Shown: positions 128 to 46,809 of the stretch, piece by piece
How the letters are laid out: the number at the start of each line of letters is the position of its first letter
How positions within the stretch are numbered: the first letter of the stretch is position 1
From: an uncultured archaeon
GTDB lineage: Archaea > Aenigmatarchaeota > Aenigmatarchaeia > QMZP01 > JACQNV01
Assembly (NCBI GenBank): GCA_964476045.1
Contig: CAYYYJ010000002.1
Coordinates: forward strand, 1 to 58,939
Length of the DNA: 58,939 bases
Reading direction: 5' to 3'
Made by a program: the position numbers and the translations under genes
Notes under the pieces: model-generated
The model's database searches: none
What the model was told of the DNA's origin: nothing
The model's input: the letters and a program-made list of their open reading frames with translations, nothing else

Positions 128-321
128 CGCCGAGGACAGGAATTGAACCTGCGCTCCCCGAAGGGAATCCGCTGACTAGGGACAAAGCTGATCTTCAGAT
201 CAACTTCAACCTTTCCGTTTCTCATACAAGACTAAACCTCGTCATTTCCGCCTACTTCCGAGTCAAGCCAATTTATTCACAGAAACTCAAGGCGGACGCA
301 TTACCGCTCTGCCACCTCGGC
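128..321 (-). tRNA. tRNA-Ser(UGA), class II, with ~112-nt intron (174..285) after position 37
   Basis: Sense GCCGAGG-TG-GCA..TGC-G-TCCGC-CTTGAG[intron]A-GCGGA-TTCCCTTCGGGGAGC-GCAGG-TTCAATT-CCTGT-CCTCGGC-G; acceptor, anticodon and T stems all pair. Confidence 0.8.
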
Positions 322-3033: not shown

Positions 3034-3062
3034 TTTTTAAGCAACGAGTCTAATATAGTTCG

Positions 3063-3677
3063 ATGCCAATCAAAGCAATAATCTTCGATGCAGACGACGT
3101 CCTGATAATAAAACCTAAAATGTTCAGCCAGTATCTTGAAGAAGATTATGGAATTCCGGCATCAGTAACAGCCAAATTCTTCAAAGGTGATTTCCAGAAC
3201 TGTTTGATTGGGAAAGCTGACCTTAAAGAAGAATTGAAAAAATGTATTAAAGAATGGGGTTGGGAAGGCACTGTAGACGATCTCCTTAAATATTGGTTTA
3301 AAGTCGAGCACAATATAAATCATGAACTCGTCGAACTAATAAAAGCACTTAAAGCTAAAGGAATAAAAACTTACCTCGGAACAAATAATGAGAAGTATCG
3401 AACAGAATATATAAGAAATCAAATGGGTTTCTCCAAGTTTTTAGATCATATTTTTGCTTCAGGTGAAATAGGCCACAAAAAACCCGACCTGAAATTTTTC
3501 GGGCATGTCTTCGAGAAAATAGCCCAGGATTCCAAAGTATCTAAAAACGAAATCCTTTTCATCGACGACGATCCAGAAAATATAGAGGCCGCGAAATCAT
3601 TCGGTTTCCAGACACTTCTATACAAAAATTTCCCTGAGTTTCAAAGCTTAATAAACAGTTTCGTTAAACATACATAA
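3063..3677 (+). CDS. HAD-superfamily hydrolase (subfamily IA-like)
   Basis: IIFDADDVL motif I, GTNN motif II, K...FIDDDPENI motifs III/IV. Confidence 0.8.
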   Translation: MPIKAIIFDADDVLIIKPKMFSQYLEEDYGIPASVTAKFFKGDFQNCLIGKADLKEELKKCIKEWGWEGTVDDLLKYWFKVEHNINHELVELIKALKAKGIKTYLGTNNEKYRTEYIRNQMGFSKFLDHIFASGEIGHKKPDLKFFGHVFEKIAQDSKVSKNEILFIDDDPENIEAAKSFGFQTLLYKNFPEFQSLINSFVKHT

Positions 3678-3708
3678 GTTTAAATATATACGTGTACATA
3701 AACATATC

Positions 3709-3972
3709 ATGACGACCAAAACTATTACAATAACAGAAGATGCATACGATGCCCTTAAAGGTTCAAAGGATATGGATGAAAGCTTTAGCAAAGCAATCCT
3801 CCGTATAACCCATAAAAAATCCCTGAAAGAGTTTGTCGGCGTCTTGTCAGAGAAGAGCGGGGACAAGCTTGAAGAGGCTATAAAGGAAATGAGGAGAAGC
3901 CGGGCAGAATCCAGAGAAAAGAGAATTGTGAGAATTTCAGGCCAGCTTAAAGGCAAATATGGCAGTTCTTGA
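3709..3972 (+). CDS. VapB-type antitoxin (small DNA-binding protein)
   Basis: 87 aa ORF overlapping the start of the downstream PIN gene; N-terminus KTITITEDAYDALK is typical of archaeal VapB-like antitoxins. Confidence 0.55.
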   Translation: MTTKTITITEDAYDALKGSKDMDESFSKAILRITHKKSLKEFVGVLSEKSGDKLEEAIKEMRRSRAESREKRIVRISGQLKGKYGSS

Positions 3973-4342
3973 AACTTCTTTTTTGATCGATATCCTTAGA
4001 GGCAGAAAACAGGCTGTAGACCTGCTTAACGAGCTTGAAGAAAGGGAACCGCTCTTCATAACAACTCCGACTATCATGGAATTATGGGAAGGTGCGTTGA
4101 GATCCCAGCTCCCGGAGAAAGAGATGAAAAAGACAGGAGATATGTTAGTAGCGCTCCATATCCTGGACTTTGATGCCAAGGCAGCTAAAAAAGCTGCTGA
4201 AATAAATTACGAGCTTTTACATTCACCGATAGAGGCTGAAGATTCCATGATAGCTTCAATCGCTTTTGTGCATAATGAAGTCCTTGTCACAAAGGACGAG
4301 CATTTTGTTCGTATCAGCGGCCTGAAGATACTGAAATACTGA
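3959..4342 (+). CDS. vapC: PIN-domain toxin (VapC-like)
   Basis: 127 aa; N-terminal LETSFLIDILRG, later acidic residues; 14-nt overlap with the upstream antitoxin ORF. Confidence 0.75.
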   Translation: MAVLETSFLIDILRGRKQAVDLLNELEEREPLFITTPTIMELWEGALRSQLPEKEMKKTGDMLVALHILDFDAKAAKKAAEINYELLHSPIEAEDSMIASIAFVHNEVLVTKDEHFVRISGLKILKY

Positions 4343-9463: not shown

Positions 9464-9528
9464 ACCGAGTATTAGTTCCTGTATATTAAATGATAACAAT
9501 AAATAATCTACAATCAAATCCCCATCTT

Positions 9529-10479
9529 ATGGTAAATCTTGAAATTTGGACAGAGAAATATCGGCCAAAAAATTTAGACGAAGTCATAGGCCAGAAGCAT
9601 GTTGTTGACCGCCTCAAAGTCTGGGCAAAGGAAAAGAGCATACCAAACATGATGTTTGCAGGGTCAGCTGGTGTCGGGAAGACAACGACAGCTCTTGCCC
9701 TCGCAAAAGAAATCTTCGGCCAGCACTGGAAAGAAAACTTCAGCGAGACCAACGCATCAGATGAAAGAGGTATAGACGTCGTGAGAGGAAAAATAAAAGA
9801 CTTCGCAAAAATCATGCCTTTCGGGGCTTCTTTCAAAATAGTTTTTCTCGACGAGGCAGACGCTTTAACAACAGAAGCGCAGCAAGCCCTAAGAAGGACA
9901 ATAGAAAAATATTCCAATGTCTGCAGGTTTGTCTTATCATGCAATTATTCGTCAAAAATAATCGAGCCGATACAGTCGAGATGCGTGGTCTTCAGGTTCA
10001 AATCCCTTACGAAAGAGCAGATAGATGATTACATAAATAGGATTGTGAAAGCGGAGAATTTACAAATAGACAAAGATGCGATGAACGCTATCTACGAATT
10101 ATCTGAAGGCGATCTTAGAAAAGTTGCGAATATCCTGCAAGCCTGCTCAAGCCACAAAAACATAACAAAAGAAATTATTTACGAAATCACAGCACAAGTA
10201 AAACCAGAAGATGTGAAAAAGATGCTTGCCGCTGTTTTGTCAGGAAATTTCGAGGAGGCCAGGAAGCAGTTGTATAATCTAACCACATCTCAAGGGATTG
10301 CCGGGGAGGAAATAATCGAGACCATTCACAAAGAATTGTTTAGTCTCCCTATAGACGAAAAAGCCAAACTCGAACTTTTAGAAAAAATAGGCGAATACGA
10401 ATTCAGATTGAACCAAGGCTCTACGCCTGAGATACAGCTTCTTGCGCTGCTTGCGCAGTTTTTGAAATACAGGAAATAG
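9529..10479 (+). CDS. rfcS: replication factor C small subunit
   Basis: WTEKYRPKNLDEVIGQ, GSAGVGKTT, FLDEADALT, IQSRCVVFRF (SRC motif). Confidence 0.9.
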   Translation: MVNLEIWTEKYRPKNLDEVIGQKHVVDRLKVWAKEKSIPNMMFAGSAGVGKTTTALALAKEIFGQHWKENFSETNASDERGIDVVRGKIKDFAKIMPFGASFKIVFLDEADALTTEAQQALRRTIEKYSNVCRFVLSCNYSSKIIEPIQSRCVVFRFKSLTKEQIDDYINRIVKAENLQIDKDAMNAIYELSEGDLRKVANILQACSSHKNITKEIIYEITAQVKPEDVKKMLAAVLSGNFEEARKQLYNLTTSQGIAGEEIIETIHKELFSLPIDEKAKLELLEKIGEYEFRLNQGSTPEIQLLALLAQFLKYRK

Positions 10480-10942: not shown

Positions 10943-11302
10943 CAAAAATGTTGTCCTCGCTTTTTTAGTGAGCTTAACAAGATTCTCAGTCTCTATAACT
11001 TTTATAATATTCAAATAAGGCGACAACTCTCTGCTTATTTTGCTGTGCTCTTTTTCGCCTTTCTTGATTAGTTTCAAAATTTTATTTTCATAAGAAAGAT
11101 GGCCTGATTTTTCCAGATCCTCCAAGTTCCTATAAAGCGCGCGCTCGCCTTTTTCTGTTAGACCCCCTTTCCTCACAATTTCTATAAAAGCGGATTTGGA
11201 AACAGAAACCTGCAAAATCCTTTCTTTCAGCCTTTTATTTGACTCCTCATACAATTTCCCCAGGACAAAAAGGATGAACTTCTGCTTTTCTGACAGCTTC
11301 AT
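10925..11302 (-). CDS. hypothetical protein, possibly winged-helix DNA-binding
   Basis: 125 aa basic ORF; helix-turn-helix-like middle region. Confidence 0.4.
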   Translation of the reverse strand: MKLSEKQKFILFVLGKLYEESNKRLKERILQVSVSKSAFIEIVRKGGLTEKGERALYRNLEDLEKSGHLSYENKILKLIKKGEKEHSKISRELSPYLNIIKVIETENLVKLTKKARTTFLSGTVV

Positions 11303-11429
11303 GTTATAGGATTGGACTCATTATTTAAAAAACAGTTGATTAAACATCCAAGGCTGCATAGAGTGGATAGGCAGGATTCAACACCAGAGACTGCGTAAAG
11401 TTTACCAACAGAACTCAAGACAATAGTTA

Positions 11430-11502
11430 TAGCCCCGCGCGGATTCGAACCGCGGTCCACCGGTCCAGAGCCGATTATACTTGGCCACTATACGACGGGG
11501 CT
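11430..11502 (-). tRNA. tRNA-Gln(CUG), intron-less
   Basis: Sense AGCCCCG...ATCGG-CTCTGGA-CCGGT-GGAC-CGCGG-TTCGAAT-CCGCG-CGGGGCT-A. Confidence 0.85.
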
Positions 11503-11572
11503 ATTTTTGTATTCTAATCTTAGTCTGAAGGTTATTAAATGTTAAATATCTAATTACTATGATTGATAAGAT

Positions 11573-13297
11573 ATGAAAATACTTTTGCTTCACTGTGATT
11601 GGGTAGAGTGGGAGCCAACCAAGAAAGCGGTCAAATCCGCAGAGGAGCCTGTAGAGATGAAGCTCACGCGCGCTGAAGACTGCCTCATTGTATTTACTTC
11701 TGTTGAGAAAGCTGACGAAAAAGATCCAGAAAAGATTGTCCAAGAATATGTGAAAAACGTGAAAGACGTCGCAGCCCAAGTCAAAGCCAAAAATATAGTT
11801 GTATACCCTTATGCGCATCTAAGCAATACCCTTTCCTCGCCTGATGTTGCATTGACGGTGTTAAAAAATTGTGAAGCCCAGATGAAAAAAGAAGGCTTCC
11901 AAGTATGGCGCGCTCCTTTCGGCTGGTACAAGAAATTCTCTTTCAAGACTAAAGGTCATCCGCTATCTGAATTGGCTAGAGAATTGAGTGTTGATGGAAA
12001 AGATTCTAAAATTGCTGTTAAAAAAGAAGTGAAGGAACAGCAAACAGGAAAAATAATCCTTGACAGGAGAAATCTCCCTCCGAATGACCACAGAATTCTT
12101 GGGCAGGATTTAAAACTTTTCCATCTGGCTGATGAAGTCGGTCCAGGCCTTCCTTTATGGATGCCGAATGGCGAGATGCTCAGACATATACTGATGGATT
12201 ACATGAGAAAAATCGAAGAGAAATATGGATACAAATATGTCGCCACATCCCATATAGCAAGGGGCTCCATATACCACGCCACAGGACACCTCCCGTATTA
12301 CAAGGATTCGATGTATCCACCAATAGACATTGACGGATCGGAATATTATCTAAAACCGATGAATTGTCCGCACCACCACATGATTTTCAAGCAGCTCGTG
12401 CAGAGCTACAAAGAATTACCTCTCAGGCTCGCTGAAGCTGGGACAGTTTACAGGAACGAATTATCTGGTGTAACTTATGGACTAGTTAGAGTGAGGGGGT
12501 TGACACAGAACGATGCTCATATCTATGTCAGGCCAGACCAGCTGAAAGAAGAGTTCATCAAAGTCCTAAAATTATTTAAAGAGGTGTATGACACAACAGG
12601 AATCAAGGGTTATTGGTTCAGGCTTTCTTTGCCAGATTTCAAGAAAAATCCTGACAAATTCACAGGCGACCCAAAAGAATGGGAGCACGCCTCCGAGGAA
12701 ATTAGAAAAGCAATGAAAGAGTTTGGGGAAAAGTTTGTGGAAGAAACAGGCGAAGCTTCATTTTACGGGCCAAAGATAGATGTGCAGATAAAGAATTCCC
12801 AGGGAAAAGAAGAGAGCATTGCGACTTCTCAGGTGGATATTGTTGTGCCGAAGAGGCTTGGGCTGACTTATACTGCCGAGAACAATGAAAAAGTAAATAG
12901 CCTCATTGTAATTCACAGGGCAATACTCGGAAGCTACGAAAGATTTATTGCCTATCTTCTGGAACAGACAGAAGGAAAGCTTCCCCTCTGGTTGTCGCCA
13001 GTTCAAGTAAAAGTTTTATCTTTCACTGACAGGAATGTAAAAGCTGTTGAAAAGCTGGTTTCAGAGCTTCTAGAAAATGGAATAAGAGCAGAAGCTGACC
13101 TGAAAGATCATACAGTAGAGCACAAGGTAAGGGATGCTGAACTTCAAAAAATCCCCTATATTTTAGTGATCGGCGATAAAGAAGAAGAGAAGGGGACTCT
13201 AGCTGTTAGGACCCGCGGATCCAAAAAAGTTGAGTTTGGCGTGAAGAAAGACGAATTTATCAAAAAGCTCGAGAAAGAAGTTGAAGGGAAGAAGTAG
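11573..13297 (+). CDS. thrS: threonyl-tRNA synthetase with archaeal-type N-terminal editing domain
   Basis: 574 aa; class II motifs (YLKPMNCPHH, FRNELSG, GLTQNDAH), C-terminal anticodon-binding domain. Confidence 0.95.
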   Translation: MKILLLHCDWVEWEPTKKAVKSAEEPVEMKLTRAEDCLIVFTSVEKADEKDPEKIVQEYVKNVKDVAAQVKAKNIVVYPYAHLSNTLSSPDVALTVLKNCEAQMKKEGFQVWRAPFGWYKKFSFKTKGHPLSELARELSVDGKDSKIAVKKEVKEQQTGKIILDRRNLPPNDHRILGQDLKLFHLADEVGPGLPLWMPNGEMLRHILMDYMRKIEEKYGYKYVATSHIARGSIYHATGHLPYYKDSMYPPIDIDGSEYYLKPMNCPHHHMIFKQLVQSYKELPLRLAEAGTVYRNELSGVTYGLVRVRGLTQNDAHIYVRPDQLKEEFIKVLKLFKEVYDTTGIKGYWFRLSLPDFKKNPDKFTGDPKEWEHASEEIRKAMKEFGEKFVEETGEASFYGPKIDVQIKNSQGKEESIATSQVDIVVPKRLGLTYTAENNEKVNSLIVIHRAILGSYERFIAYLLEQTEGKLPLWLSPVQVKVLSFTDRNVKAVEKLVSELLENGIRAEADLKDHTVEHKVRDAELQKIPYILVIGDKEEEKGTLAVRTRGSKKVEFGVKKDEFIKKLEKEVEGKK

Positions 13298-14305: not shown

Positions 14306-15745
14306 TTAAACCTTCCGTATCTCCGCAATGTTCCTCTGTCCGCCGCTGGATGAAGGCAAATTAGCTGTGATAACAATATTGTCGCCTTTTTTGATTTTCT
14401 GCTTGTTTTCCAAAAAGCAAACGCCTTTTTCAATGATCTCATTCACATTGCCAACTATCGGAACTTTGTAAGCGAAGATGCCCCAGAATAAAGAAAGAAA
14501 TTTGCAGACCTCTGGTTTTGGTGTGAGAACATAAATCGGGGACTGGACTCTGTACCTTGAAAGCATTTTGGCTGCATCGCCCCTGTTAGTGAGGGATAAT
14601 ATTGCATCGGCTTTGATGGAATCTGCTGACATTGCAACTGCCTTTCCTACAATAGAATAAATGTCATCTTTTTTTATTTCATACCTGTTAATCTTGTTTC
14701 TCACTTCTTTTTCAATAGAAACAGCTATTTTATTCATCATCGAGACTGTCTCAACTGGATATTTCCCGTTTGCAGTTTCCCCAGAAAGCATAACACAGTC
14801 AGCGCCCATGTAAATTGCATTTGCAACGTCTGTCACCTCAGCTCGTGTAGGCCTCGGGTTTTCAATCATGGAATTCAGCATCTGGGTCGCCACAATCACA
14901 GGCTTTCCTGCCTGATTGCATTTTTTAACCATCTGGTATTGGAGTGTAGGCAGTGTTTCAAGAGGTACGTCCATTCCCAAATCCCCCCTCGCAACCATGA
15001 CAGCATCAGAAGACCCTATAATTTCGTCGATGTTGTTGAGCGCTTCCTGGCATTCTATTTTAGAGATTATCTGGGTCCCGTTGTTTTTCAGATAATCTTT
15101 CAGCTCCAGGACATCTTTTTTGGTTTTTACAAAAGAAGCTGCTATAAAATCCACATTGTTTTTTACGCTGTATTCTATGTCTTTCCAGTCTTTTTCAGTG
15201 AAAGTCGGGCCCTGATGGCCAGCCTGCGGGATGTTTACCCCTTTGTTGTGTTTTAGTATCCCGGAATTTTTGGCCACGCATTCAGCTGTTGTTTTATCTG
15301 ATTTCACTATTTCAAATTCAAGAAGCCCATCCTCAACCATTATGTTCCCGGCGCCTCGTTGGACACTGGTCAGCAGACCAGCGTCGTCCATTTTTGGGAA
15401 AGCCTGCACATTCACAAAAACAGTATAAGGCTTTTTATCTGCCTGAACTTCCTTTTCATCAAGAGAGAAAAATATTTTGTCGCCTGCCTTTATTTCCAGG
15501 TTTTGTTTTTCTGTGTCAACCCTTATCTCAGGACCCTTCAAGTCAGAAACAATGGTTATTGGCCTGTCCCTGGATTTATTTATTTCCTGCAAAATTTTGA
15601 TCCTGCCTCCTTTTTCTTCTGGTCCCCCATGCGAGAAATTCAGCCTTGCAACATCCATTCCTGCGGCTATCATGCTGGATATAGTCTCTTTTGTATCGCT
15701 GGCCGGCCCGAGCGTGCAGATTATCTTTGTTTTTCTTAGGGGCAT
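14306..15745 (-). CDS. pyk: pyruvate kinase
   Basis: KIICTLGPAS, NFSHG, MVARGDLG, ATQMLNSM motifs. Confidence 0.95.
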   Translation of the reverse strand: MPLRKTKIICTLGPASDTKETISSMIAAGMDVARLNFSHGGPEEKGGRIKILQEINKSRDRPITIVSDLKGPEIRVDTEKQNLEIKAGDKIFFSLDEKEVQADKKPYTVFVNVQAFPKMDDAGLLTSVQRGAGNIMVEDGLLEFEIVKSDKTTAECVAKNSGILKHNKGVNIPQAGHQGPTFTEKDWKDIEYSVKNNVDFIAASFVKTKKDVLELKDYLKNNGTQIISKIECQEALNNIDEIIGSSDAVMVARGDLGMDVPLETLPTLQYQMVKKCNQAGKPVIVATQMLNSMIENPRPTRAEVTDVANAIYMGADCVMLSGETANGKYPVETVSMMNKIAVSIEKEVRNKINRYEIKKDDIYSIVGKAVAMSADSIKADAILSLTNRGDAAKMLSRYRVQSPIYVLTPKPEVCKFLSLFWGIFAYKVPIVGNVNEIIEKGVCFLENKQKIKKGDNIVITANLPSSSGGQRNIAEIRKV

Positions 15746-16307: not shown

Positions 16308-16371
16308 TTTCTAAAGAAGGCTGGAAATTGATTGAGAAAAAATATAAAAAATCAATTTCGTCCCTTTAAAA
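16308..16371 (+). repeat. palindromic element copy A
   Basis: CTTTCTAAAGAAGGCTGGAAATTGATT[loop]AATCAATTTCGTCCCTTTAAA. Confidence 0.8.
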
Positions 16372-16574
16372 CTAACTACTAGAGAATTCTCGCACTCCTT
16401 ATAAAGGAGTTTTGCCAACTCTGTACCAAATTGAAAAATCAAAATTCCCTGATCAAGGTTTTCTAAAAAAGAAAGGCTGGAAGAAGTAATCTTAACTATT
16501 TTTCGTTCAGCCAGAAAGTCGTCAATAGCCGAACACGCTTTAACACTTAAAAAGGCGGATATTTTATATATGTA

Positions 16575-18725
16575 ATGGTTACTATGGATATTGTCGGTTT
16601 AGAAAGCGCATCTGGATTTTCAGGTACAAAGCTCCAGGACTTTGTGCAAGCTGCATACTTTGTTTTAAAAAAATATAATAGAGAAAACCCTAAAGAGCAG
16701 GAATTGATCTGGCAAGATCTCTGCAAAAATCTTTTTGCTCTAAAAGAATTTTCTGACCTAAAATTTGAAGCACAGAAGCTGCTTTTCGATTTTGTTTATG
16801 GAAAGAGGCTGACTCAGGACGGACCGCCACCAGCATGGTTCCCCTCAAAAGAAAATTTAGAAAAATCAAATCTAGCTGTTGTAATGAAGGATCTGGATTT
16901 TAAAATGGCTGGAAACCGATCGAAGATGATTGAGATTGATCCTTCGCAATTGATCCGAGATCAATCTCGTCCCTTTAGGGAGTTCCACAAATGGTCTGTA
17001 GAAAACACCGACGACTTTTGGAGTCTAGTGACAAAAAGGCTTGGAATTGTATTTAAGAAGAGTTCTCAGAGGATATCAGACCTTTCTAACGGTGCAGAAA
17101 AGCCTGTTTGGTTCCCTGGTTCTGAGATAAATATTGTTGATAGCTGTTTTAATGCCGATAAAGGAAAAATTGCTGTCTATTTTTCTAGAGAAGGCTCAGG
17201 CAAAATTCAGAGCTGGACTTATGGAGATCTAGAAAATCTCGTCAATCAAGTTGCAAATAGTTTGAAAGAAAAAGGATACGAGAATGGCGATGTTATCGCG
17301 ATCGATATGCAAATGACTCCTGAGAGTGTTGCTGTTTACCTTGGAGTAATCAAAGCCGGTTGCGTTGCTTTATCAATAGCAGATTGCTTTGCTCCGCCTG
17401 AGATTGAGAAAAGGTTGAAGATAGGGAATGCGAAATTAATTTTTACAGTGGACTATTACATGAGGGACGGGAAGAAAATCGAAATTTATAATAAAGTTAA
17501 GGAGGCTAATCCTCCGCCTATTATACTAATTCCTTATGACGAAACTTCACAGGAAAAATTAGATGTGCTGGACATCTACTGGAAAGATTTTCTTGTAGTG
17601 AAAGATGAATTTGAATCTGTAGCTTGCAGACCGCAAGAGCCCACAAATATTTTATTTTCCTCTGGGACAACAGGCGAACCTAAAGCTATTCCATGGGACC
17701 ACACAACTCCAATAAAAGCTGCATCAGACTCGTTTTTCCATCAGGATATACACCCAGATGATATTTTAGCATGGCCAACAAATCTCGGATGGATGATGGG
17801 TCCGTGGCTTATCTACGCAACTTTAGTCAACAAGGCTTCAATGGCTTTGTACACAGGATCTTATTCTGGAAAAGAGTTTGGGGAATTCGTGCAAAATACT
17901 GGAGTTACTATGTTAGGTGTGATCCCAAGCTTGGTAAACATATGGAAAACAAAAAAATGCATGGAAGACCTTGATTGGAGCAAAATAAAAAGATTTAGTT
18001 CTACAGGAGAATGCTCGAGAAAAGAAGATATGTTATATCTCATGTCACTAGCTGGCTACAAACCGATAATAGAATATTGCGGCGGGACAGAGATCGGCGG
18101 GGTTTACATAACAGGAACAATGATACAGCCTTGCTCACCGTCCACTTTCACAACAGCTGCAATGGGTGTCGATTTTTTGATTCTAGACGAGAGCGGAAAA
18201 AGAACAAAAAACGGCGAGGTATTTATTATCCCGCCTTCTATTGGGTTATCGACCCTGATCTTGAATAGGGACAATTTCCAGACATATTATGAGGGATGCC
18301 CAAAAGAAAATGGCTATCATCTAAGACGGCATGGAGACCAGGTAGAGGAATTGGCAAACAACTATTTTGTTGTCCATGGAAGGACAGATGATACGATGAA
18401 CTTGTCTGGTGTAAAGGTGAGCTCTGCTGAGATTGAGAGGACACTGCACGGACATCCCGGAATATCAGAAACAGCTGCCATAGGGATAATGCCTGCAGAC
18501 ACCCGAATAACACAGCTTATTGTTTATGCAGTGCCGTCTAACGGAAGTGTTTTGAATAAGGAAAAAATAAAATCAGATTTCCAGCAAGCAATAAAAACAA
18601 AACTAAATCCAATTTATAAAATACATGATGTGGTTATAACAAATTCTCTCCCAAGGACAGCTTCGAACAAGGTGATGAGAAGGCTGCTGAGAGACGAGTA
18701 CCAGAAAAATATCCAGGCCAGATAA
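16575..18725 (+). CDS. AMP-forming acyl-CoA synthetase (acetyl/acetoacetyl-CoA synthetase-like) carrying a 24-codon element-derived insert
   Basis: 716 aa; FSSGTTGEPK AMP-binding motif, WSVENTDDFW N-domain, C-terminal TASNKVMRRLLR. Confidence 0.85.
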   Translation: MVTMDIVGLESASGFSGTKLQDFVQAAYFVLKKYNRENPKEQELIWQDLCKNLFALKEFSDLKFEAQKLLFDFVYGKRLTQDGPPPAWFPSKENLEKSNLAVVMKDLDFKMAGNRSKMIEIDPSQLIRDQSRPFREFHKWSVENTDDFWSLVTKRLGIVFKKSSQRISDLSNGAEKPVWFPGSEINIVDSCFNADKGKIAVYFSREGSGKIQSWTYGDLENLVNQVANSLKEKGYENGDVIAIDMQMTPESVAVYLGVIKAGCVALSIADCFAPPEIEKRLKIGNAKLIFTVDYYMRDGKKIEIYNKVKEANPPPIILIPYDETSQEKLDVLDIYWKDFLVVKDEFESVACRPQEPTNILFSSGTTGEPKAIPWDHTTPIKAASDSFFHQDIHPDDILAWPTNLGWMMGPWLIYATLVNKASMALYTGSYSGKEFGEFVQNTGVTMLGVIPSLVNIWKTKKCMEDLDWSKIKRFSSTGECSRKEDMLYLMSLAGYKPIIEYCGGTEIGGVYITGTMIQPCSPSTFTTAAMGVDFLILDESGKRTKNGEVFIIPPSIGLSTLILNRDNFQTYYEGCPKENGYHLRRHGDQVEELANNYFVVHGRTDDTMNLSGVKVSSAEIERTLHGHPGISETAAIGIMPADTRITQLIVYAVPSNGSVLNKEKIKSDFQQAIKTKLNPIYKIHDVVITNSLPRTASNKVMRRLLRDEYQKNIQAR
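16905..16976 (+). repeat. palindromic element copy inserted in frame in the acyl-CoA synthetase ORF
   Basis: ATGGCTGGAAACCGATCGAAGATGATTGAGATTGATC[17 nt]GATCAATCTCGTCCCTTT; near-identical to 41503..41570. Confidence 0.8.
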
Positions 18726-20808: not shown

Positions 20809-20871
20809 CTAAAATAAAACACTGTAAGAAATATAAAGCGCAAAGTATCTGCTATAAGCAATGCATAACTC

Positions 20872-20917
20872 CAAACAAGGTGATGAGGCGGCTGTTAAGG
20901 GATGAATACCAGAAGAT
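20872..20917 (+). pseudogene. relic C-terminal fragment of an acyl-CoA synthetase paralogue
   Basis: Encodes NKVMRRLLRDEYQK, identical in amino acids to 18666..18707 but with 7 synonymous codon changes. Confidence 0.6.
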
Positions 20918-20927
20918 TGCTCAATGT

Positions 20928-21485
20928 TTATTTTAATTTTATACCTTGATTCTTTTTGTGTATACCTCTTTTTCCGTGTGATGGTCTAGGAGGTAGAGTT
21001 GATTCTTCTTCCAGATAGGGAGCACGCCTTATAAGATGCTCTAAAAAAGGTTCAGTATCCTCTATTATTTTCAATTCAACAGTTTTTTGCCATAAGCCTG
21101 TATCTTTATCAAAACTCCATTCAGCACCCAATAGGTCATCCATAAGACTAAGATTGCTGTCATTTTTTACCCCACTTAAAAATTCACGCTCCTCCTTAAT
21201 GCTTCTGGGATCACTGATTCTATAAAATACCAGATAAATTCCGTACCTGAAAAATTTTGCTGTGACCCTTCTGTCTGAGTAGGCTAGTATATCTCCTCTA
21301 TCTCCATTTTGTCTGGTATAAGATAGGCTGCAGTTAGGGCCATATGATAATTTTGTTTCAGCCCTGCCGAAATCAAATGTACCGTCTAAATCCAGTTTTC
21401 TCCTATCAGGGCTGACAAAATCTGCCCTGTTTGTCAAACCGCTGAAAATCTCGTATAAAGGAAGTTGTCCATTTACAGGTTGCAT
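20928..21485 (-). CDS. hypothetical protein
   Basis: 185 aa ORF. Confidence 0.45.
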   Translation of the reverse strand: MQPVNGQLPLYEIFSGLTNRADFVSPDRRKLDLDGTFDFGRAETKLSYGPNCSLSYTRQNGDRGDILAYSDRRVTAKFFRYGIYLVFYRISDPRSIKEEREFLSGVKNDSNLSLMDDLLGAEWSFDKDTGLWQKTVELKIIEDTEPFLEHLIRRAPYLEEESTLPPRPSHGKRGIHKKNQGIKLK

Positions 21486-21808
21486 CTATATGGTAGGTTA
21501 GAGAAGCTTTATATGTTTTTTGTCCTGGCCATTTCAGCTTCTCAGAGAGAATTAGACCCATCTTTGGTAATCTACGAATCTGATAAAATAAGGTCAGAAC
21601 CATTTTCTGGCATCTCTAAAATTACAGGAGGCGCATATAAAAAATAACCGTCAATACAAAAAATATAAGATTTGTGTTCAGGGACAGGAAGGAGCCAACA
21701 AACCTGTCCCCAGACACAAGAAGAGGAATTTACTAGCCTACGAATATAAGTTATTAAGGAATTCTCACGCATTATATAAAGCTTTTCCCTAGTTTAGACC
21801 CAAATTCA

Positions 21809-21902
21809 GCCCTTTCTTTTCCCGATGGACTGAAACCGATTTCCGTTCGATCTATTCGAAATCGGTTTCGACCCTTTAAAGTGTTGAGATCCCAAAGAAA
21901 AA
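21809..21902 (+). repeat. palindromic element copy G with outer arms
   Basis: GCCCTTTCTTTTCCCGATGGACTGAAACCGATTTC[loop]GAAATCGGTTTCGACCCTTTAAAG...CCCAAAGAAAAAA. Confidence 0.75.
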
Positions 21903-21994
21903 ACGTTGAGATTAAGCCTTATAACCCAAGAAAGAAAAGGATTTACACCTATACCCAAAGAAAAACAATAGGCCGAATAAAACCAATAACCAAC

Positions 21995-22643: not shown

Positions 22644-22762
22644 CGCCATCACCCGGACTCGAACCGGGATATCCCGTCTTCTGAGAAATTGGAATGCTCA
22701 ATTTCAGTATGTGAAGGAAACAGGCTTTCCAGGCCTGCGCAGTACCATTGTGCCATGATGGC
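22644..22762 (-). tRNA. tRNA-Ser(GGA), class II, with ~37-nt intron in the variable arm
   Basis: Sense GCCATCA-TG-GCA..TGC-G-CAGGC-CTGGAAA-GCCTG-[52-nt variable region]-CCCGG-TTCGAGT-CCGGG-TGATGGC-G; the variable region is about 35 nt too long. Confidence 0.7.
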
Positions 22763-24763: not shown

Positions 24764-24824
24764 TAAATAGTAGTTGTCAAAGTAACTTCAGTTTTTGCTT
24801 AAGCGTTGAATGGATGAAAGCGGG

Positions 24825-25241
24825 TTACAAAAGCTTTAGAAATTCATCTGCTTTCACTATTTTTGTTAGGTGGAATTCTTTGAGGTTCAACAAGTGTGGA
24901 TCTCCTGTAACTATGTAGTCTGCTTTAGCTGTTACAGCACACTCTATTATTTTATTATCGTCTGGATCGTCTCTAACAGCCTGAATCGTGTTTGCCGGTT
25001 TGACAACTTTTGCATATTCCAAAATTAAAGCTATCTGACTTTCAATAAAATCGTGGTCTTCAAGAAAATCCCTTTTCAAGACCCTTTCCAACTCTTCCAA
25101 TATTTGTGGTGATGTGAAAACCTGTATTTTTCCATCTATAGCAAGCTCCACTATCTGGTGAGGTTTGCCCAGCCAGAAGACAGAGGAAACATAAATGTTG
25201 GTGTCCAAAACAACCCTAAGCTTTTCGTTTTCTTCCTTCAC
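24825..25241 (-). CDS. PIN-domain toxin
   Basis: VVLDTNIYVSSVFW...; paralogue of 31290..31691. Confidence 0.8.
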   Translation of the reverse strand: MKEENEKLRVVLDTNIYVSSVFWLGKPHQIVELAIDGKIQVFTSPQILEELERVLKRDFLEDHDFIESQIALILEYAKVVKPANTIQAVRDDPDDNKIIECAVTAKADYIVTGDPHLLNLKEFHLTKIVKADEFLKLL

Positions 25242-25482
25242 GGATTATTCTCACAACGTCTTCTTCTGATTTTATTCCTAATTTCTTTGCGTGCTTTATT
25301 CCAAAATTTGTCAGCCTTTCAAATTCTTTTGTCGGGTCTGGAATATTTATTTTTTTTAATAGGATAAAGTCCTCCATTCTGCTTACAACCAGCTGTGAAC
25401 CTTCCTCTAATTCTAATTCCTGCCTAATGTGAGAAGGTATTACAACCTGCCCTTTTGTTGAGATTGTAGTTATTTCTGCCAT
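25216..25482 (-). CDS. AbrB/SpoVT-family antitoxin
   Basis: ISTKGQVVIPSHIRQELELEEGSQL; overlaps the PIN gene. Confidence 0.8.
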   Translation of the reverse strand: MAEITTISTKGQVVIPSHIRQELELEEGSQLVVSRMEDFILLKKINIPDPTKEFERLTNFGIKHAKKLGIKSEEDVVRIIREGRKRKA

Positions 25483-25564
25483 ATAAGAATGTATTACTTT
25501 CTTACCTTATAAAGGTTTTTATTATAATTTAAGAAGCCACAATTAAGACTCAAGACCGATGACT

Positions 25565-25643
25565 GAGTACCGAAGACTGCAGGAACTGCTTACTCCTGTT
25601 CTATTGGTTAGGTCTTGGGTTCTGAGTTCTGGGTCCTGAATCC
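25565..25643 (+). repeat. repeat X (about 85% identical to 33062..33145)
   Basis: CCGAAGACTGCAGGAACTGCTTACTCCTGTTCTATTGGTTAGGTCTTGGGTTCTGAGTTCTGGGTCCTGAA. Confidence 0.75.
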
Positions 25644-31275: not shown

Positions 31276-31289
31276 ACAAGAAAAGCGAG

Positions 31290-31691
31290 TTACAGAAGCT
31301 TTAGAAATTTGTCTGGCGTCAAATTTTTTATCCCTTGAAACTCTTTCATGTCTGTAAGATCAGGATCGCCGATAACAATATAATTAGCACCTCCATCAAC
31401 AGCTGTTTCAATTATCTTGTTATCTGTTGGGTCTCTTACAACATTAAGCGTGCTGACCTTTTGTACAATGTGGTAATCATTGAAAATGGTTTCTATAAGC
31501 TTTGAAAGCTGGTCTTGAGGAAAGCCAAATTTGTTTATCAGTTTTGTCAAAAATTCTTCCAGAATTTCTTTTGAAGTGATTAAAGCATATTCTCCATTTA
31601 ATCCTCTATTAATCACTTCGTGTGGTTTGCCTCTCCAGAAAACTGAAGAGATTAGGACGTTTGTATCTGGGACAATTCTGATCTCTGGCAT
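31290..31691 (-). CDS. PIN-domain toxin (paralogue of 24825..25241)
   Basis: IVPDTNVLISSVFWRGKPH...KFLKLL. Confidence 0.8.
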   Translation of the reverse strand: MPEIRIVPDTNVLISSVFWRGKPHEVINRGLNGEYALITSKEILEEFLTKLINKFGFPQDQLSKLIETIFNDYHIVQKVSTLNVVRDPTDNKIIETAVDGGANYIVIGDPDLTDMKEFQGIKNLTPDKFLKLL

Positions 31692-31692
31692 T

Positions 31693-32001
31693 TCAATCCC
31701 CTTCTAAAACATCTTTTTCTGTTATCCCTTTTTTCTTTGCAAACTTTACGCCGAAATCCACTATTTTTTCAAATTCTTTTACAGAAGGCAGTTCCATCTT
31801 CTTGAAAATTATTGTGTCTCCACTACCATAGACTGCGAATTTTGTGCCTTCTACTATTTTCATTTTTTCCCTGATCCCCTGCGGAATAACAACCTGCCCT
31901 TTTGGAGAAGTTGTTGTCATTTCTACTTGGCTCATAACTTGGTTGGAAGCTGATTCATAGTTGGAAATTCGGTCTTTCGCCCAGCTTCGGTCTTTCACCA
32001 C
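31693..32001 (-). CDS. AbrB/SpoVT-family antitoxin (start uncertain: GTG 32001 or ATG 31920)
   Basis: TTTSPKGQVVIPQGIREKMKIVEGTKF. Confidence 0.75.
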   Translation of the reverse strand: MVKDRSWAKDRISNYESASNQVMSQVEMTTTSPKGQVVIPQGIREKMKIVEGTKFAVYGSGDTIIFKKMELPSVKEFEKIVDFGVKFAKKKGITEKDVLEGD

Positions 32002-32255
32002 CTCATATGTTAGTACAATAGTTTTACTTTCTTACTTTATAAAGGTTTGTATAACAGTTTTCTGTCCAAAAAATTAAGAAACAGCTTCTTGTTTTCTTTT
32101 GCAGTATTCCAGTCTTTTACTTTTTCAGCTTCCCTTTCGTACTTCTCTTTCAAGTTATAGTTTACAAACAGGATAAAAGTGATAAGGATGAAGCTGTTCA
32201 ATTTGCTGAAGTCTGTGGAAAGTGAAATATAAACAAAGCCGCCAAATAATCATAG

Positions 32256-32849
32256 ATGCCTGAAAAGATTAAAGCTGAAGGATTGAGAATAGAAAAACTG
32301 GAACCGAGACATAAAGAGCTGTTGAATTCTTTTCAAACTTCAAACAAGGAGCTGAAAGATTTTCTTGTTGAAGATGCATTCAAAAATCAAGAATTGGCAA
32401 TTTCAACAACTTATGTCTGGTTTTACGCAAAAACAAATGAGCTGGTTGCTTATATAACCTTGCTGACAGATTCTCTCAGAATAAGGGAAACAGAATTAGA
32501 AAAGGCATTTGTAGATAAGGGAATTTTGTATAAAAGTTTGCCTGCACTCAAAATAGGAAGACTTTGTGTGGACAACCTATTTATAGGAAGGGGCATAGGA
32601 ACCCAGACAACTTATTTTGTGATGGATGTGCTTTTGACAATCACAGATTATGCTGGCTGTAGGTTTGTAGTTCTCGATGCAAAACCAGAAGCAGTGGAGT
32701 TTTACAAGAAACTCGGATTTCAAATACTGAAACAAGCAGATAAAGAAACTGTCCCAATGTATTATGATATGAGGGCCGGTATTGACCTTTACAGAAAAGG
32801 TGAGCTTAAGCTATCTGAATATTTTTTGAAAACTTTTCGAGCTCTCTAG
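32256..32849 (+). CDS. GNAT-family N-acetyltransferase
   Basis: RLCVDNLFIGRGIGTQ acetyl-CoA binding motif; FYKKLGF. Confidence 0.8.
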   Translation: MPEKIKAEGLRIEKLEPRHKELLNSFQTSNKELKDFLVEDAFKNQELAISTTYVWFYAKTNELVAYITLLTDSLRIRETELEKAFVDKGILYKSLPALKIGRLCVDNLFIGRGIGTQTTYFVMDVLLTITDYAGCRFVVLDAKPEAVEFYKKLGFQILKQADKETVPMYYDMRAGIDLYRKGELKLSEYFLKTFRAL

Positions 32850-32964
32850 CTAATTCTCTATCCTTTTCTGTCGGAGCTGAATTGTTCTTTTTAATCATGT
32901 TCTCCAAAAATCTTCTCGCATCTTCACCAGTAATTTCTGGTGTTGGTTCAATTGGCTTTGCCAT
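32806..32964 (-). CDS. small convergent ORF (52 aa), unverified
   Basis: MAKPIEPTPEITGEDARRFLENMIKKNNSAPTEKDRELARELEKFSKNIQIA; overlaps the GNAT 3' end. Confidence 0.25.
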   Translation of the reverse strand: MAKPIEPTPEITGEDARRFLENMIKKNNSAPTEKDRELARELEKFSKNIQIA

Positions 32965-33061
32965 ATGATATTTAATTTATTTAACAGTTTATAAGCTTTC
33001 AGGAGCGTGTTTTTCAATGCTTTCCCCTTCTTATACATTTCCATCAAAAAACTCTGAAAGC

Positions 33062-33145
33062 CGTAGACCGAAGACTTTGTAGGGAACTGCTTATTCCTGT
33101 TCTATTGGTTAGGTCATGTGTCCTGAGTTCTGGGTCTTGAAGACC
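33062..33145 (+). repeat. repeat Y (matches 25565..25643), lies in the trailer of tRNA-Lys
   Basis: CCGAAGACTTTGTAGGGAACTGCTTATTCCTGTTCTATTGGTTAGGTCATGTGTCCTGAGTTCTGGGTCTTGAA. Confidence 0.75.
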
Positions 33146-38513: not shown

Positions 38514-38642
38514 CTTTTTATTTAGAGATCAGTAATTAAAAAGGAGAAAAAAAGTATTCACACCATCTTCACGCCACCAAGATATATAAGCCAGGTTACC
38601 ATAAACTGTGTATCTTAAAAAATCAAATAAAATTTCAAGAAT

Positions 38643-38692
38643 GGATCAAACTGATTTCAGACCAATTGGTTAGGAAATCAATTTCAGCCATC
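38643..38692 (+). repeat. palindromic element copy F
   Basis: GGATCAAACTGATTTCAGACCAATTGGTTAGGAAATCAATTTCAGCCATC; about 90% identical to copy E. Confidence 0.8.
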
Positions 38693-38693
38693 T

Positions 38694-39770
38694 ATGGAGC
38701 CTATGAACGGATACCTCGACCTGAACTCAGCGTATACAAAAAACTTTGGCTGGAGATCCAATCCTTTTTCTTTCAAAATTGTCCCAGAGCTCTTTGTTGG
38801 CTACCAAAAAGAAGTCAGCACAATTTTTAACGGAGTAAACGACGGCTCTAGATTCTCTCTAATTTTAGGCCAATCAGGGACAGGAAAAACAACTTTTATG
38901 AAACATGTGCAGAGAAATCTCAGCGAGAAAAATAAAATCCTCTATCTCCCGAAAGCTCCAACAGACCCAAAAGACCTAGTTGAAATACTAACTAACAACC
39001 TAGGATTGAGTCCAGAAAATTCAGGCAAAGAAATAAACCTCTACAACATCGGAGACTTCCTAAACAAAGAAGTCAGGGATTTCAAAATAATCCTTTTCAT
39101 AGACGAGTGCCAAGAAGCGCCGAAGGAAACTTTCGAATGGCTCAGATCTCTGTCAGACCAGATAGACAATATCTCTATTGTATTATCCGGCCTCCCAGAA
39201 TTCGAGTCCATACTCAAAACAGAAATCCACAGTCTACTCAACCGCGTAAATATCAGGGTTGAAATGGGAAATCTCAGCAGATTAGAAACACTTGATCTAA
39301 TCAAGAAAAGAATAGAGTTTGTAGGCGGTATAGATACACAACCTTTCACACACGACGCGATAGAGATAATCTACGACAAAACAGCTGGCTACCCCAGAGA
39401 GATCCTAAGAGTCTGCGAAGAAGTCGCTCAAAAAGCTGCAATCAAAAATATTTCTATAGTAGACGCAGAGTTTGTCCAAGAGCAAGAAACCCTGAAATCA
39501 GTAGAAAAGCCTTCGATGCATGATCTCTCTGGAAGACAGAAAGCAATAATAGAATCCTTGATTTCCCACAAAACCCTTACACCGTCACAAATGGTAGCAA
39601 AGATCGACTGTAATGAATACAAAACAAAAGACAACGCAGTCCGCTCAGTCAACAACATCCTGAAAAGAATGACTGAAGAAGGCAAATTAATCCGAAAGAA
39701 AAGGGATAAAGCCTTTGTTTATGAGTTAGCGCCAAGAATGCAATCTGCTTTTAGTTTAGGAAAAGCTTAA
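38694..39770 (+). CDS. AAA+ ATPase with C-terminal winged-helix (ExeA- or Orc1/Cdc6-like; not resolved)
   Basis: GQSGTGKTT Walker A, LFIDECQE Walker B, C-terminal wHTH-like segment. Confidence 0.6.
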   Translation: MEPMNGYLDLNSAYTKNFGWRSNPFSFKIVPELFVGYQKEVSTIFNGVNDGSRFSLILGQSGTGKTTFMKHVQRNLSEKNKILYLPKAPTDPKDLVEILTNNLGLSPENSGKEINLYNIGDFLNKEVRDFKIILFIDECQEAPKETFEWLRSLSDQIDNISIVLSGLPEFESILKTEIHSLLNRVNIRVEMGNLSRLETLDLIKKRIEFVGGIDTQPFTHDAIEIIYDKTAGYPREILRVCEEVAQKAAIKNISIVDAEFVQEQETLKSVEKPSMHDLSGRQKAIIESLISHKTLTPSQMVAKIDCNEYKTKDNAVRSVNNILKRMTEEGKLIRKKRDKAFVYELAPRMQSAFSLGKA

Positions 39771-40134: not shown

Positions 40135-40234
40135 ACCCTTTCTTTTCAAAGAAGGATGGAAGTTGATTTCCTATCCAATTTATCTGAAATCAACTTCGTC
40201 CCTTTAGAAAGGCTACAGTACCCAAAGAAAAGGG
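40135..40234 (+). repeat. palindromic element copy B with outer arms, 6 nt from the PRC-barrel start codon
   Basis: ACCCTTTCTTTTCAAAGAAGGATGGAAGTTGATTT[loop]AAATCAACTTCGTCCCTTTAGAAAGGCTACAGTACCCAAAGAAAAGGG. Confidence 0.8.
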
Positions 40235-41480: not shown

Positions 41481-41618
41481 TCCTTTTCTTTCCAAAAGAA
41501 GAGTGGAAACCGATCGAAGATGGTTGAGATTGATCTTGGATCAGCTGCGAAGGATCAATCTCGTCCCTTTGTGATCGGTTTCGTCCCTTTAAGTATACCG
41601 TACCCAAAAAGAAAGGGT
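41481..41618 (+). repeat. palindromic element copy C: one element nested in the loop of another
   Basis: Outer GTGGAAACCGATC...GATCGGTTTCGTCCCTTTA encloses inner GAAGATGGTTGAGATTGATC[17]GATCAATCTCGTCCCTTT; outer arms TCCTTTTCTTTCC / CCCAAAAAGAAAGGG. Confidence 0.8.
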
Positions 41619-43633: not shown

Positions 43634-43746
43634 GCGTTGTCTGATCTACTTACTGTAATGTATAAACATTAGCGGTAGGTTTAAAAAGTGTTTGTATACT
43701 GGAGTATATACTTCTGTTACAATCATCCATCTTAAAATCTACGAAA

Positions 43747-43797
43747 GACCGAAACTGATTTCAGACCAATTGGTTAACAAATCAGTTTCCGTCCATC
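43747..43797 (+). repeat. palindromic element copy E, 15 nt upstream of ftsZ
   Basis: GACCGAAACTGATTTCAGACCAATTGGTTAACAAATCAGTTTCCGTCCATC followed by TATGGAGG-N6-ATG. Confidence 0.8.
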
Positions 43798-43811
43798 TAT
43801 GGAGGTAAAAT

Positions 43812-46707: not shown

Positions 46708-46809
46708 GCCCTTTTGGGTACAGTAGCCGATTCGGCTGGAAACCGATTTTCTAAGCAATTGGTCTAAAATCGGTTTCGTCCCTCTAAAGCTCCCGGAAAA
46801 GGCTACTAT
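46708..46809 (+). repeat. palindromic element copy D; right arm overlaps the S15 start codon
   Basis: GCCCTTTTGGGTACAGTAGCCGATTCGGCTGGAAACCGATTTT[loop]AAAATCGGTTTCGTCCCTCTAAAGCTCCCGGAAAAGGCTACTATG. Confidence 0.8.

Follow-up and report, generated by a model that had tools for sequence, protein, structure and literature searches.

A segment of 72 nt within the gene for an AMP-forming acyl-CoA synthetase of an uncultured archaeon is a copy of a hairpin repeat that is similar to the repetitive extragenic palindromes (REPs) and Rickettsia palindromic elements (RPEs) of bacteria, probably mobile and probably translated through as part of the protein. The gene lies on a stretch of 58,939 nt assigned to the Aenigmatarchaeota (contig CAYYYJ010000002.1 of assembly GCA_964476045.1), which was analyzed as a whole and is referred to here as the window, and the segment occupies codons 111-134 of the synthetase open reading frame (ORF) (Table 1). 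Palindromic repeats that lie in frame within housekeeping genes are known, as a textbook curiosity, from Rickettsia and a small number of other bacteria. What we describe here appears to be a coding hairpin repeat that resembles RPEs and REPs and belongs to a DPANN archaeon, and the wider pattern is of more interest than the single copy. The host is a DPANN archaeon: the best named relatives of the threonyl-tRNA synthetase encoded in the window come from Candidatus Aenigmarchaeota/Aenigmatarchaeota metagenome-assembled genomes (MAGs; identity of 83% at most), and the window contains intron-containing tRNA genes and genes for TBP, FtsZ and CofD at a G+C content of about 39%.

The closest relative of the segment is a composite repeat at 41.5 kb of the window, and nucleotide homology of the ORF copy to it spans 16910 to 16976/7. 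The left flank of the ORF copy, GGAAACCGATCGAAGATGATTGAGATTGATC (16911-16941), is identical to 41505-41535 at 30 of 31 positions (chance expectation 0.00), and the right flank, GATCAATCTCGTCCCTTT (16959-16976), matches 41553-41570 at all 18 positions. The 10-bp arms GAGATTGATC/GATCAATCTC with a 17-nt loop between them were found at these two sites only, where 0.02 would be expected by chance. When one loop is read as the reverse complement of the other, 14 of the 17 positions agree, compared with 2 of 17 in direct orientation; a match of at least 14/17 has a binomial estimate of about 1e-6 per single pair. The ORF copy lacks the outer 3' arm and second tail of its relative, GTGATCGGTTTCGTCCCTTT (20 nt; 41571-41590 in the 41.5 kb copy). 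A covariance model of the family (R1) gave a score of 58.1 bits for the ORF copy, which belonged to its training set. One of the three sense frames of the segment is free of stops, and this is the frame in use. An earlier note on this DNA, made from the letters alone, had described codons 111-134 as a stop-free, in-frame element copy of 72 nt with these flanks, an inverted loop and a missing outer 3' half, and all of these statements were reproduced when the frame and the matches were recomputed. The sequence is base-for-base identical in two further assemblies, L001 (ERR4904390) and L002 (ERR4904391). Since three assemblies agree exactly, the segment is not an assembly artefact.

To judge whether the segment is derived, homologs of the synthetase were compared. 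The protein contains the Pfam domains ACAS_N, AMP-binding and AMP-binding_C and begins with a domain of about 110 aa that is specific to its family; all NCBIfam matches were under the curated cut-offs. Acetyl-CoA synthetases in the PDB are homologous to it from residue 134 on, directly after the insert. A search of 5.8 billion proteins provided close homologs of 672-729 aa, and alignments of 14 and 116 sequences were built from them. Not one of the 115 homologs (0/115) has residues opposite positions 111-132. Orthologs are syntenic in five contigs (L003-L007), in the order pyruvate kinase, a 162-aa gene and synthetase, and also lack the segment. The homologous 24-aa segment that, according to the earlier note, would have marked this part of the protein as ancestral was looked for and is absent. 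The best ortholog (P0003; 73% identity, same gene order, without the segment) reads TTT CAC AAT TAT AAG GAC at the DNA level where the window has TTT AAA, the 72 nt and AGG GAG. A protein scan of the genome contigs with the synthetase as query returned no match.

The junction itself is informative. All 115 homologs have two extra residues there, x-Tyr, with the Tyr conserved in at least 90%, and the tail codons of the element, CCC TTT (PF), align with this dipeptide. Because the x-Tyr slot is filled by PF, the net gain is 22 aa or 66 nt and not 24 aa. On the basis of these alignments, the segment is best described as an inserted repeat copy, which is derived and not ancestral protein sequence. 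The opposite view, in which the protein sequence is ancestral or specific to the lineage, or the assembly is chimeric, and the likeness to the repeat is secondary, is next to impossible. The open frame is all that speaks for it; it is refuted by the homologs, and both the orphan outer arm with the GTCCCTTT tail, identical to the intergenic copy, and the agreement of three independent assemblies contradict it. An empty site in the synthetase gene would read GATTTTAAA + ~6 nt + AGGGAG, and neither a target-site duplication nor a clean empty site was definable at the ORF site or at the two further protein-coding sites described below. Upstream of the synthetase, the orthologs are too diverged in alignment for either to be defined.

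Two further genes contain in-frame inserts of the same family. The first is the window gene for pyruvate kinase, in which the plus strand of a 13-aa insert (Table 1) reads TG-GACACTGGTC-AGCA-GACCAGCGTC-GTCCATTT, with the 4-nt loop of a short-loop subtype and the element antisense to the gene. The peptide segment at this insert is MDDAGLLTSVQR; the insert was also recovered by a hairpin finder, and it is absent from an ortholog that is 77% identical (467 vs 479 aa). The second is Kae1 in related loci. In L058 the insert (133-176) is GCTG-GAGATGGATC-TTCT-GATCCATCTC-GTCCCTCT, with 32.9 bits in the covariance model, and its translation, AGDGSSDPSRPS, shares its phase with the synthetase insert (AG...SRP(F/S)). 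It is missing from solved Kae1 structures and from relatives that are 80-82% identical, and a relative with 83% identity has a diverged in-frame insert, GGGWSSGQSRPS (P0241 vs P0242). The Kae1 gene of L060 (~3055-4077) contains a different hairpin, GACACTGGTC-TGCA-GACCAGTGTC, between the same flanks, CAGCT[GA] ... CCCTCTCATG, and its arms (GACACTGGTC) are those of the window pyruvate kinase insert. At least two hairpin variants are thus found at the same Kae1 site among relatives, which would reflect either a hot spot for insertion or one gain and subsequent precise losses. As far as these sequences indicate, family inserts are tolerated in the essential gene Kae1 and have been retained while the protein diverged by about 17%. 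The parallel that the earlier note drew with Rickettsia palindromic elements holds at the level of behavior, now with in-frame inserts in pyruvate kinase and Kae1 as well. In about 14 orthologous protein pairs between the window and a sister species, the two hairpin elements were the only insertions of at least 5 aa on the window side. Since they account for all such insertions, the elements contribute measurably to the formation of new protein segments in a genome that is very small.

The structural context of the synthetase insert was examined by prediction, as the earlier note had proposed together with the alignment of homologs. An AlphaFold2 model based on the 116-sequence alignment (mean pLDDT 90.4, pTM 0.89) had low confidence at residues 111-130 only (about 50-58, with 114-118 below 50), between two confident domains, and placed a helix at 123-143 that runs from the insert into the conserved ACAS_N helix. 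The part that the homologs lack is modeled as a low-confidence loop. In the model, the insert falls exactly in the linker that joins the N-terminal domain specific to the family to the catalytic core, a place at which an additional loop is plausible. A translated insert would add about 22 residues, as a flexible loop and an extension of the first helix of the acetyl-CoA synthetase core, and the enzyme would tolerate it at the junction of the two domains. By analogy, we infer that the insert is transcribed and translated, which is better supported than its removal.

It is unlikely, on the other hand, that a dispensable gene was hit recently, with neutral or mildly harmful effect, and has a protein that is impaired or becoming a pseudogene and a frame that is open through youth. 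The near-identity to the relative (30/31 and 18/18) does suggest a recent event, Phe stands in place of the conserved Tyr, and the nearest insert-free homolog is only 74% identical, so that persistence is not datable. In addition, a search of 1.84 billion representative proteins with the insert peptide gave a single match, an unrelated-looking repeat protein (P0361). However, all 716 codons are intact, the other invariant residues of the family are all kept and the structural model is confident except at the insert. The insertion is also both in phase and in the single open frame, each with a chance of about 1 in 3, and the Kae1 inserts have persisted through the divergence mentioned above. 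P0361 itself has 144 aa with four tandem repeats GNRS(E/K)QMEIDPNKWKSIRT (GNRS[EK]QMEIDPNKW), and it may be the translated tandem array of a related DNA repeat.

The same family also occurs in tRNA introns. When the canonical intron of 44 nt and the one of 218 nt at T-loop 59/60 are taken out of the tRNA-Thr(UGU) gene of L024 (7175-7514), a 74-nt tRNA is left that ARAGORN accepts, and the hairpin element lies within the 218-nt intron. The tRNA-Thr(UGU) gene of L058 (2545-2870) has a D-loop intron of about 55 nt and a T-loop intron of 197 nt; a homologous T-loop intron of 164 nt is present in tRNA-Glu(UUC) of L057 (minus strand, around 11300-11700); and an element-bearing D-loop intron of about 104 nt in a tRNA gene of L049 (2367-2640) is apparent from sequence inspection. 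The three homologous T-loop introns have a relaxed splice motif in common, in which the 5-bp T-stem and a 4-bp UUCR/UGAA helix are accompanied by AAU bulges, with an inner helix that is nearly absent. One window copy, at 21.8 kb, has flanks of the intron type and no recognizable tRNA exons, and could be what is left of a tRNA gene after disruption, or an intron-like element that stands by itself. This copy was seen behind a promoter-like box, TTATATAAAGC (21760-21990). ARAGORN detected none of the intron-rich tRNA genes, and Rfam at the gathering threshold detected no element-bearing tRNA gene in the related loci. These comparisons make a link between the element and the gain of tRNA introns possible.

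These introns bear directly on the possibility that the synthetase insert is itself an archaeal-type intron, excised from the mRNA by the splicing endonuclease EndA and an RNA ligase, so that a conventional protein is made. The cbf5 mRNA of Crenarchaeota has an intron that is cut by the tRNA splicing endonuclease. Within the present family, the element sits in introns that need splicing (L024, L058, L057, L049 and the window tRNA-Leu), and three of them have the relaxed bulge-helix-bulge motif in common; moreover, a DPANN endonuclease of broad specificity is known (PMC3488258). Such motifs were sought with a purpose-written scanner, which recovered the canonical 44-nt tRNA-Thr intron of L024 as a control. 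At the synthetase insert, the scan found no in-frame motif, strict or relaxed, with boundaries that restore the family junction. The sole respectable candidate, at 16905/16967 (h = 7, H = 4, h' = 2), would remove 62 nt, shift the frame and create a TAG stop. No motif supports a removal of 66 nt, and removal of 72 nt would delete the conserved x-Tyr and leave a product unlike the homologs; the earlier note had taken the 72-nt excision to give a conventional junction, a point that does not stand. The pyruvate kinase and L058 Kae1 inserts, both scanned, have no in-frame motif either, and the insert region does not fold with better energy than shuffled sequence (z = -0.44). The motifs of the tRNA introns are built from sequence well outside the hairpin that is absent at the ORF. 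As the hairpin does not contain the splice signals of the tRNA introns, these introns do not alter the conclusion on the ORF copy. Excision from the mRNA, which the earlier note had kept as an option, is thus improbable, and translation through the repeat is preferred.

The family as a whole was also characterized. The 58.9 kb of the window contain eight long-loop and two short-loop copies (the latter in pyruvate kinase and a tRNA intron), where the chance expectation is about 0. A unit consists of a TGG head, perfectly complementary arms of 10-12 bp, a loop of 4-17 nt and the tail CGTCCCTTT / CGTCCC(T)TT; the family consensus is ...GG-(C/T)TG-[GA(A/G)(A/G)YYGAT.. arm]-loop-[arm]-CGTCCC(T)TT (alignment A3). 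In a set of 23 copies, taken from the window and from other genomes, pairing in the 12-bp stem amounts to 96.5%, both sides change in 6 of the 12 pairs and the covariation score was reached by none of 500 shuffles, although these statistics are partly inflated, as some copies were collected by searches that demanded complementary arms. Two collection scans, one of genomes and one of metagenomes, used degenerate patterns and did not demand complementarity; in the metagenome scan, archaeal matches had 0-1 arm mismatches, whereas chance matches had 2-4. Members of the family were found in CAZVWU01 (four loci), DATDTO01, JACQNV01 (labelled Aenigmatarchaeota) and GCA_053536795.1, and in the JGI sample 3300025317, which also contains the ortholog locus L005. 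Rfam at the gathering threshold matched tRNAs only, with no family matching the hairpins.

Several intergenic copies lie close to start codons (Table 1). Those upstream of the AAA_22 ATPase and ftsZ start codons (38635-38700, 43739-43810) are followed by a common sequence, CCATCTATGGAG; they could have a 5'-leader or regulatory role or result from site-specific reinsertion. At the orthologous AAA_22 site of L005 (12660-12718) there is a hairpin with different but fully complementary arms, and each of the two copies at this site (38635-38693 in the window) resembles others of its own genome or sample, which suggests homogenization among copies. Such observations raise the possibility that the hairpin in the synthetase gene has been co-opted, as an RNA structure that slows the ribosome between two domains, a protein-binding site or an internal start for a truncated enzyme. 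In support of this, intergenic copies lie directly 5' of the ftsZ, S15 and AAA_22 ATPase start codons, one of them is retained, its arms fully compensated, at an orthologous site, and the insert falls exactly at a domain boundary; it also supplies ATG codons at 16905 and 16926, beside a TTTTAAAA stretch. Co-option is nevertheless highly improbable: it has no specific support, the insert is absent from all relatives, and the resemblance of the orthologous-site copies to copies of their own genome fits repeat homogenization.

Other functions of the hairpins were also considered. A replication origin with origin recognition boxes came into question as several copies surround the AAA_22 ATPase gene and have TGGAAAC, and was set aside because the copies are spread over more than 30 kb, the arms vary with compensation and there is no GC-skew switch. 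A transcription-factor operator is disfavored because both arms change together between copies. The CTG/GTC internal loop was rejected by eye as a kink-turn or C/D-box because it is without tandem G·A pairs.

The relationship between the ORF copy and the 41.5 kb copy indicates how the former may have arisen. In the 41.5 kb composite, one unit lies within the loop of another and the whole forms a single long hairpin (-44.3 kcal/mol, z = -3.56). The same nested layout occurs in L052 (4242-4340), where the inner tail adjoins the outer 3' arm. The ORF copy is composed of the outer left end, the spacer, the inner hairpin and the inner tail. Such a truncated copy could have been derived from a composite by mobilization that ran from the outer left end as far as the first right end available, or by a deletion that took out the 20 nt separating the two direct GTCCCTTT tails, and the two routes are equally possible. 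By either route, a 72-nt piece would result from a composite with a length not divisible by three. The synthetase gene stays open because this length is divisible by three and the only stop-free sense frame is read.

Inversion of the loop is general in the family. The loops of 15-17 nt fall into two reverse-complement classes relative to the asymmetric head and tail, so that the flip/flop relation claimed in the earlier note for the ORF and 41.5 kb loops is real and extends across the family. For L056 and L057, which have the same arms, 15 of 15 loop positions agree as reverse complement and 6 of 15 directly; the corresponding reverse-complement matches are 15/16 for L014 and L041, and 14/15 for L024 and the window copy at 38.6 kb. 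These relations were obtained by same-register comparison; a gapped comparison did not resolve the two orientations, since the core of the loop, CAATTG, is a palindrome in its own right. If the arms of each palindrome often recombined or served for template switching, the loop flips would be accounted for and the arms would also stay perfectly complementary.

A more far-reaching and rather doubtful possibility is that one mobile hairpin family is behind both the new non-canonical tRNA introns and the in-frame protein insertions in Aenigmatarchaeota. Such a family would spread by hairpin-based copying, with flip/flop loops and perfectly matched arms as the result, and the host would neutralize it by EndA splicing in tRNA genes and by read-through translation in surface loops of proteins. 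The data are consistent with this because homologous introns with the element are found at T-loop 59/60 in both tRNA-Thr and tRNA-Glu, the intron-like 21.8 kb copy is without tRNA exons and the Kae1 site has two variants. That the elements are modules of unusually long tRNA introns could connect the origin of non-canonical archaeal tRNA introns with the survival of selfish DNA in essential genes.

It should be noted that several points, besides the inflation of the stem statistics, weigh against a mobile repeat that is translated through. No transposase or other mobilizing enzyme was found in the roughly 30 window ORFs scanned or in the fetched loci, which cover a small part of the genome, while mobility at the DNA level would presumably depend on an enzyme. 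The event was not a simple insertion, because the conserved x-Tyr codons are missing. The case for translation is made by inference and analogy, and the intact frame is weaker evidence here than in Kae1 because the synthetase may be dispensable. Finally, removal at the RNA level is not absurd in this lineage because the same family sits in tRNA introns that need to be removed.

Table 1 Repeat copies, their parts and associated genes in the window
Feature	Position	Strand	Remarks
Host gene, AMP-forming acyl-CoA synthetase, 716 aa	16575-18725	+	like acetate/acetoacetate-CoA ligases
In-frame segment, 72 nt, codons 111-134	16905-16976	+	reads MAGNRSKMIEIDPSQLIRDQSRPF
ORF copy: outer-hairpin 5' arm GGAAACCGATC	16911-16921	+	identical to 41505-41515; partner arm absent in ORF
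Long-loop copy inside synthetase ORF	16924-16980	+	covariance model
ORF copy: inner hairpin	16932-16968	+	arms 16932-16941, 16959-16968 (10 bp, perfect); loop 16942-16958, 17 nt, inverted vs 41.5 kb
ORF copy: conserved family tail GTCCCTTT	16969-16976	+	encodes (R)PF, aligned with x-Tyr of homologs
Closest relative, complete nested composite	41504-41590	+	divergent intergenic region, TBP/TatD genes
41.5 kb composite: outer arms	41505-41515, 41573-41582		
41.5 kb composite: inner arms	41526-41535, 41553-41562		loop 41536-41552
41.5 kb composite: two GTCCCTTT tails	41563-41570, 41583-41590		
Long-loop copy nested in outer unit	41518-41574	+	covariance model
Long-loop copy	16316-16371	+	~200 nt 5' of synthetase start codon; absent or unrecognizable at orthologous site in L005
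Long-loop copy	21824-21881	+	flanks AATTCAGCCCTTTCTTTT ... AAAGTGTTGAGATCC as in T-loop introns of relatives' tRNA genes
Long-loop copy	38635-38693	-	adjoins AAA_22 ATPase gene start
Long-loop copy	40151-40209	+	convergent intergenic region, upstream of TBP gene 3' end; 81.2 bits
Long-loop copy	43739-43797	-	directly 5' of ftsZ start codon
Long-loop copy	46731-46789	+	~20 nt 5' of ribosomal protein S15 start codon
Pyruvate kinase insert, 13 aa MDDAGLLTSVQRG	15353-15391	-	gene 14306-15745 (-), two genes upstream of synthetase
Short-loop family-like hairpin	172-215	-	second (variable-region) intron of tRNA-Leu(GAG); 21.8 bits, E = 0.007
tRNA-Leu(GAG)	128-321	-	Rfam; canonical intron + variable-region intron
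Intron-containing tRNA gene	22644-22762	-	

Some other observations were made in the region. Just 5' of the synthetase start, a conserved motif ATCGTC-N4-GCCGAA-N6-7-T(T/A)AACA(C/T)TTAA is present in three species (16500-16575 in the window; L005 1860-1920; L014 6201-6243), and may be a promoter or leader element. A relic of the synthetase 3' end of about 50 nt, encoding SNKVMRRLLRDEYQK with 80% nucleotide identity (20869-20914 vs 18661-18706), is located 2.2 kb past the end of the gene. The sister species, in its syntenic region, has neither the intervening radical-SAM and methyltransferase genes nor a 185-aa ORF (20928-21485) located past the relic, and this suggests that a block was inserted or that the region was rearranged. 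A number of direct repeats, 40-70 nt in length with 73-92% identity, lie about 6.5-7.5 kb apart (24817-25640 vs 31282-33141); they include low-complexity GGTTAGGTCTTGGGTTCTGAGTTCTGGG and suggest a diverged segmental duplication. Two sister-species genes contain parts that the window lacks: the RFC gene has an intein (Intein_splicing, LAGLIDADG; L003 1-682 vs window 9490-10479), and the threonyl-tRNA synthetase an extra tRNA_edit domain (730 vs 574 aa; L003 3890-6082 vs window 11573-13297).

Full-text literature searches yielded no previous account of such elements from archaea or Aenigmatarchaeota. Such inserts will be encountered in proteins by gene callers and in the homology-based annotation of DPANN MAGs, and tRNA finders miss intron-laden genes. 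Among known systems, the RPEs, reportedly described by Ogata et al. in 2000 and 2002, are the nearest in behavior. As in RPEs (reviewed in PMC10969869), multicopy palindromic repeats are found both between genes and in frame in unrelated housekeeping genes of small, reduced genomes, with the gene kept open and the insert placed, here by prediction, in a surface loop that the fold tolerates. Unlike RPEs, to which they have no apparent sequence relationship, the present elements have an archaeal host, units of about 35-72 nt instead of about 100-150 nt and no conserved RPE-like peptide; their arms are perfect, variable between copies and compensated, their loops flip and copies also occur in tRNA introns. 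Host (Aenigmatarchaeota), size (37-72 nt), architecture and peptide search all set them apart from RPE-1 to RPE-10.

RPE-4 and RPE-6 belong to the CGTC-tagged REPs, a class with the layout 5'-CGTC...CCA-3' that is known from five bacterial phyla and not from archaea, and for which no dedicated transposase is known (PMC3733652; Di Nocera et al., 2013). The present family resembles it in the short stem-loop, the conserved tetranucleotide end and the unpaired tail (here ...GTTT-CGTC-CC, with ...CCA(G) on the other strand), in the heterogeneous stems and loops within the family and in occasional intragenic copies. However, the tag is mirrored, with CGTC 3' of the stem and GACG...CCA as its complement, the stems are 10-12 bp compared with 8-9 bp, and the loops reach 17 nt compared with 4-5 nt. 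The likeness may be coincidental. Neither a REP-associated tyrosine transposase (RAYT) nor an IS200/IS605-type tyrosine transposase was found in the window or the fetched loci, a small part of the genome. [quoted passage not shown] They differ from MITEs, and fall outside that class, in that the inverted repeat is the whole element, no target-site duplication or parent insertion sequence was found in the DNA covered and the size is far smaller than is typical of MITEs.

Putatively mobile tRNA introns were reportedly described in Thermoproteales by Fujishima et al. in 2010. The homologous element-bearing introns at T-loop 59/60 in tRNA-Thr and tRNA-Glu recall such intron transposition, whereas, unlike archaeal bulge-helix-bulge introns, the ORF copy has no usable in-frame motif and the hairpin is an internal module and not the splice signal. 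Loop inversions in short hairpins are known as small plastid inversions, quasipalindrome template-switch mutations and the flip/flop of parvovirus terminal hairpins. The present family has in common with these the two loop orientations between identical inverted arms with the orientation of the flanks kept, but here the inversions are seen across the dispersed copies of an archaeal repeat family.

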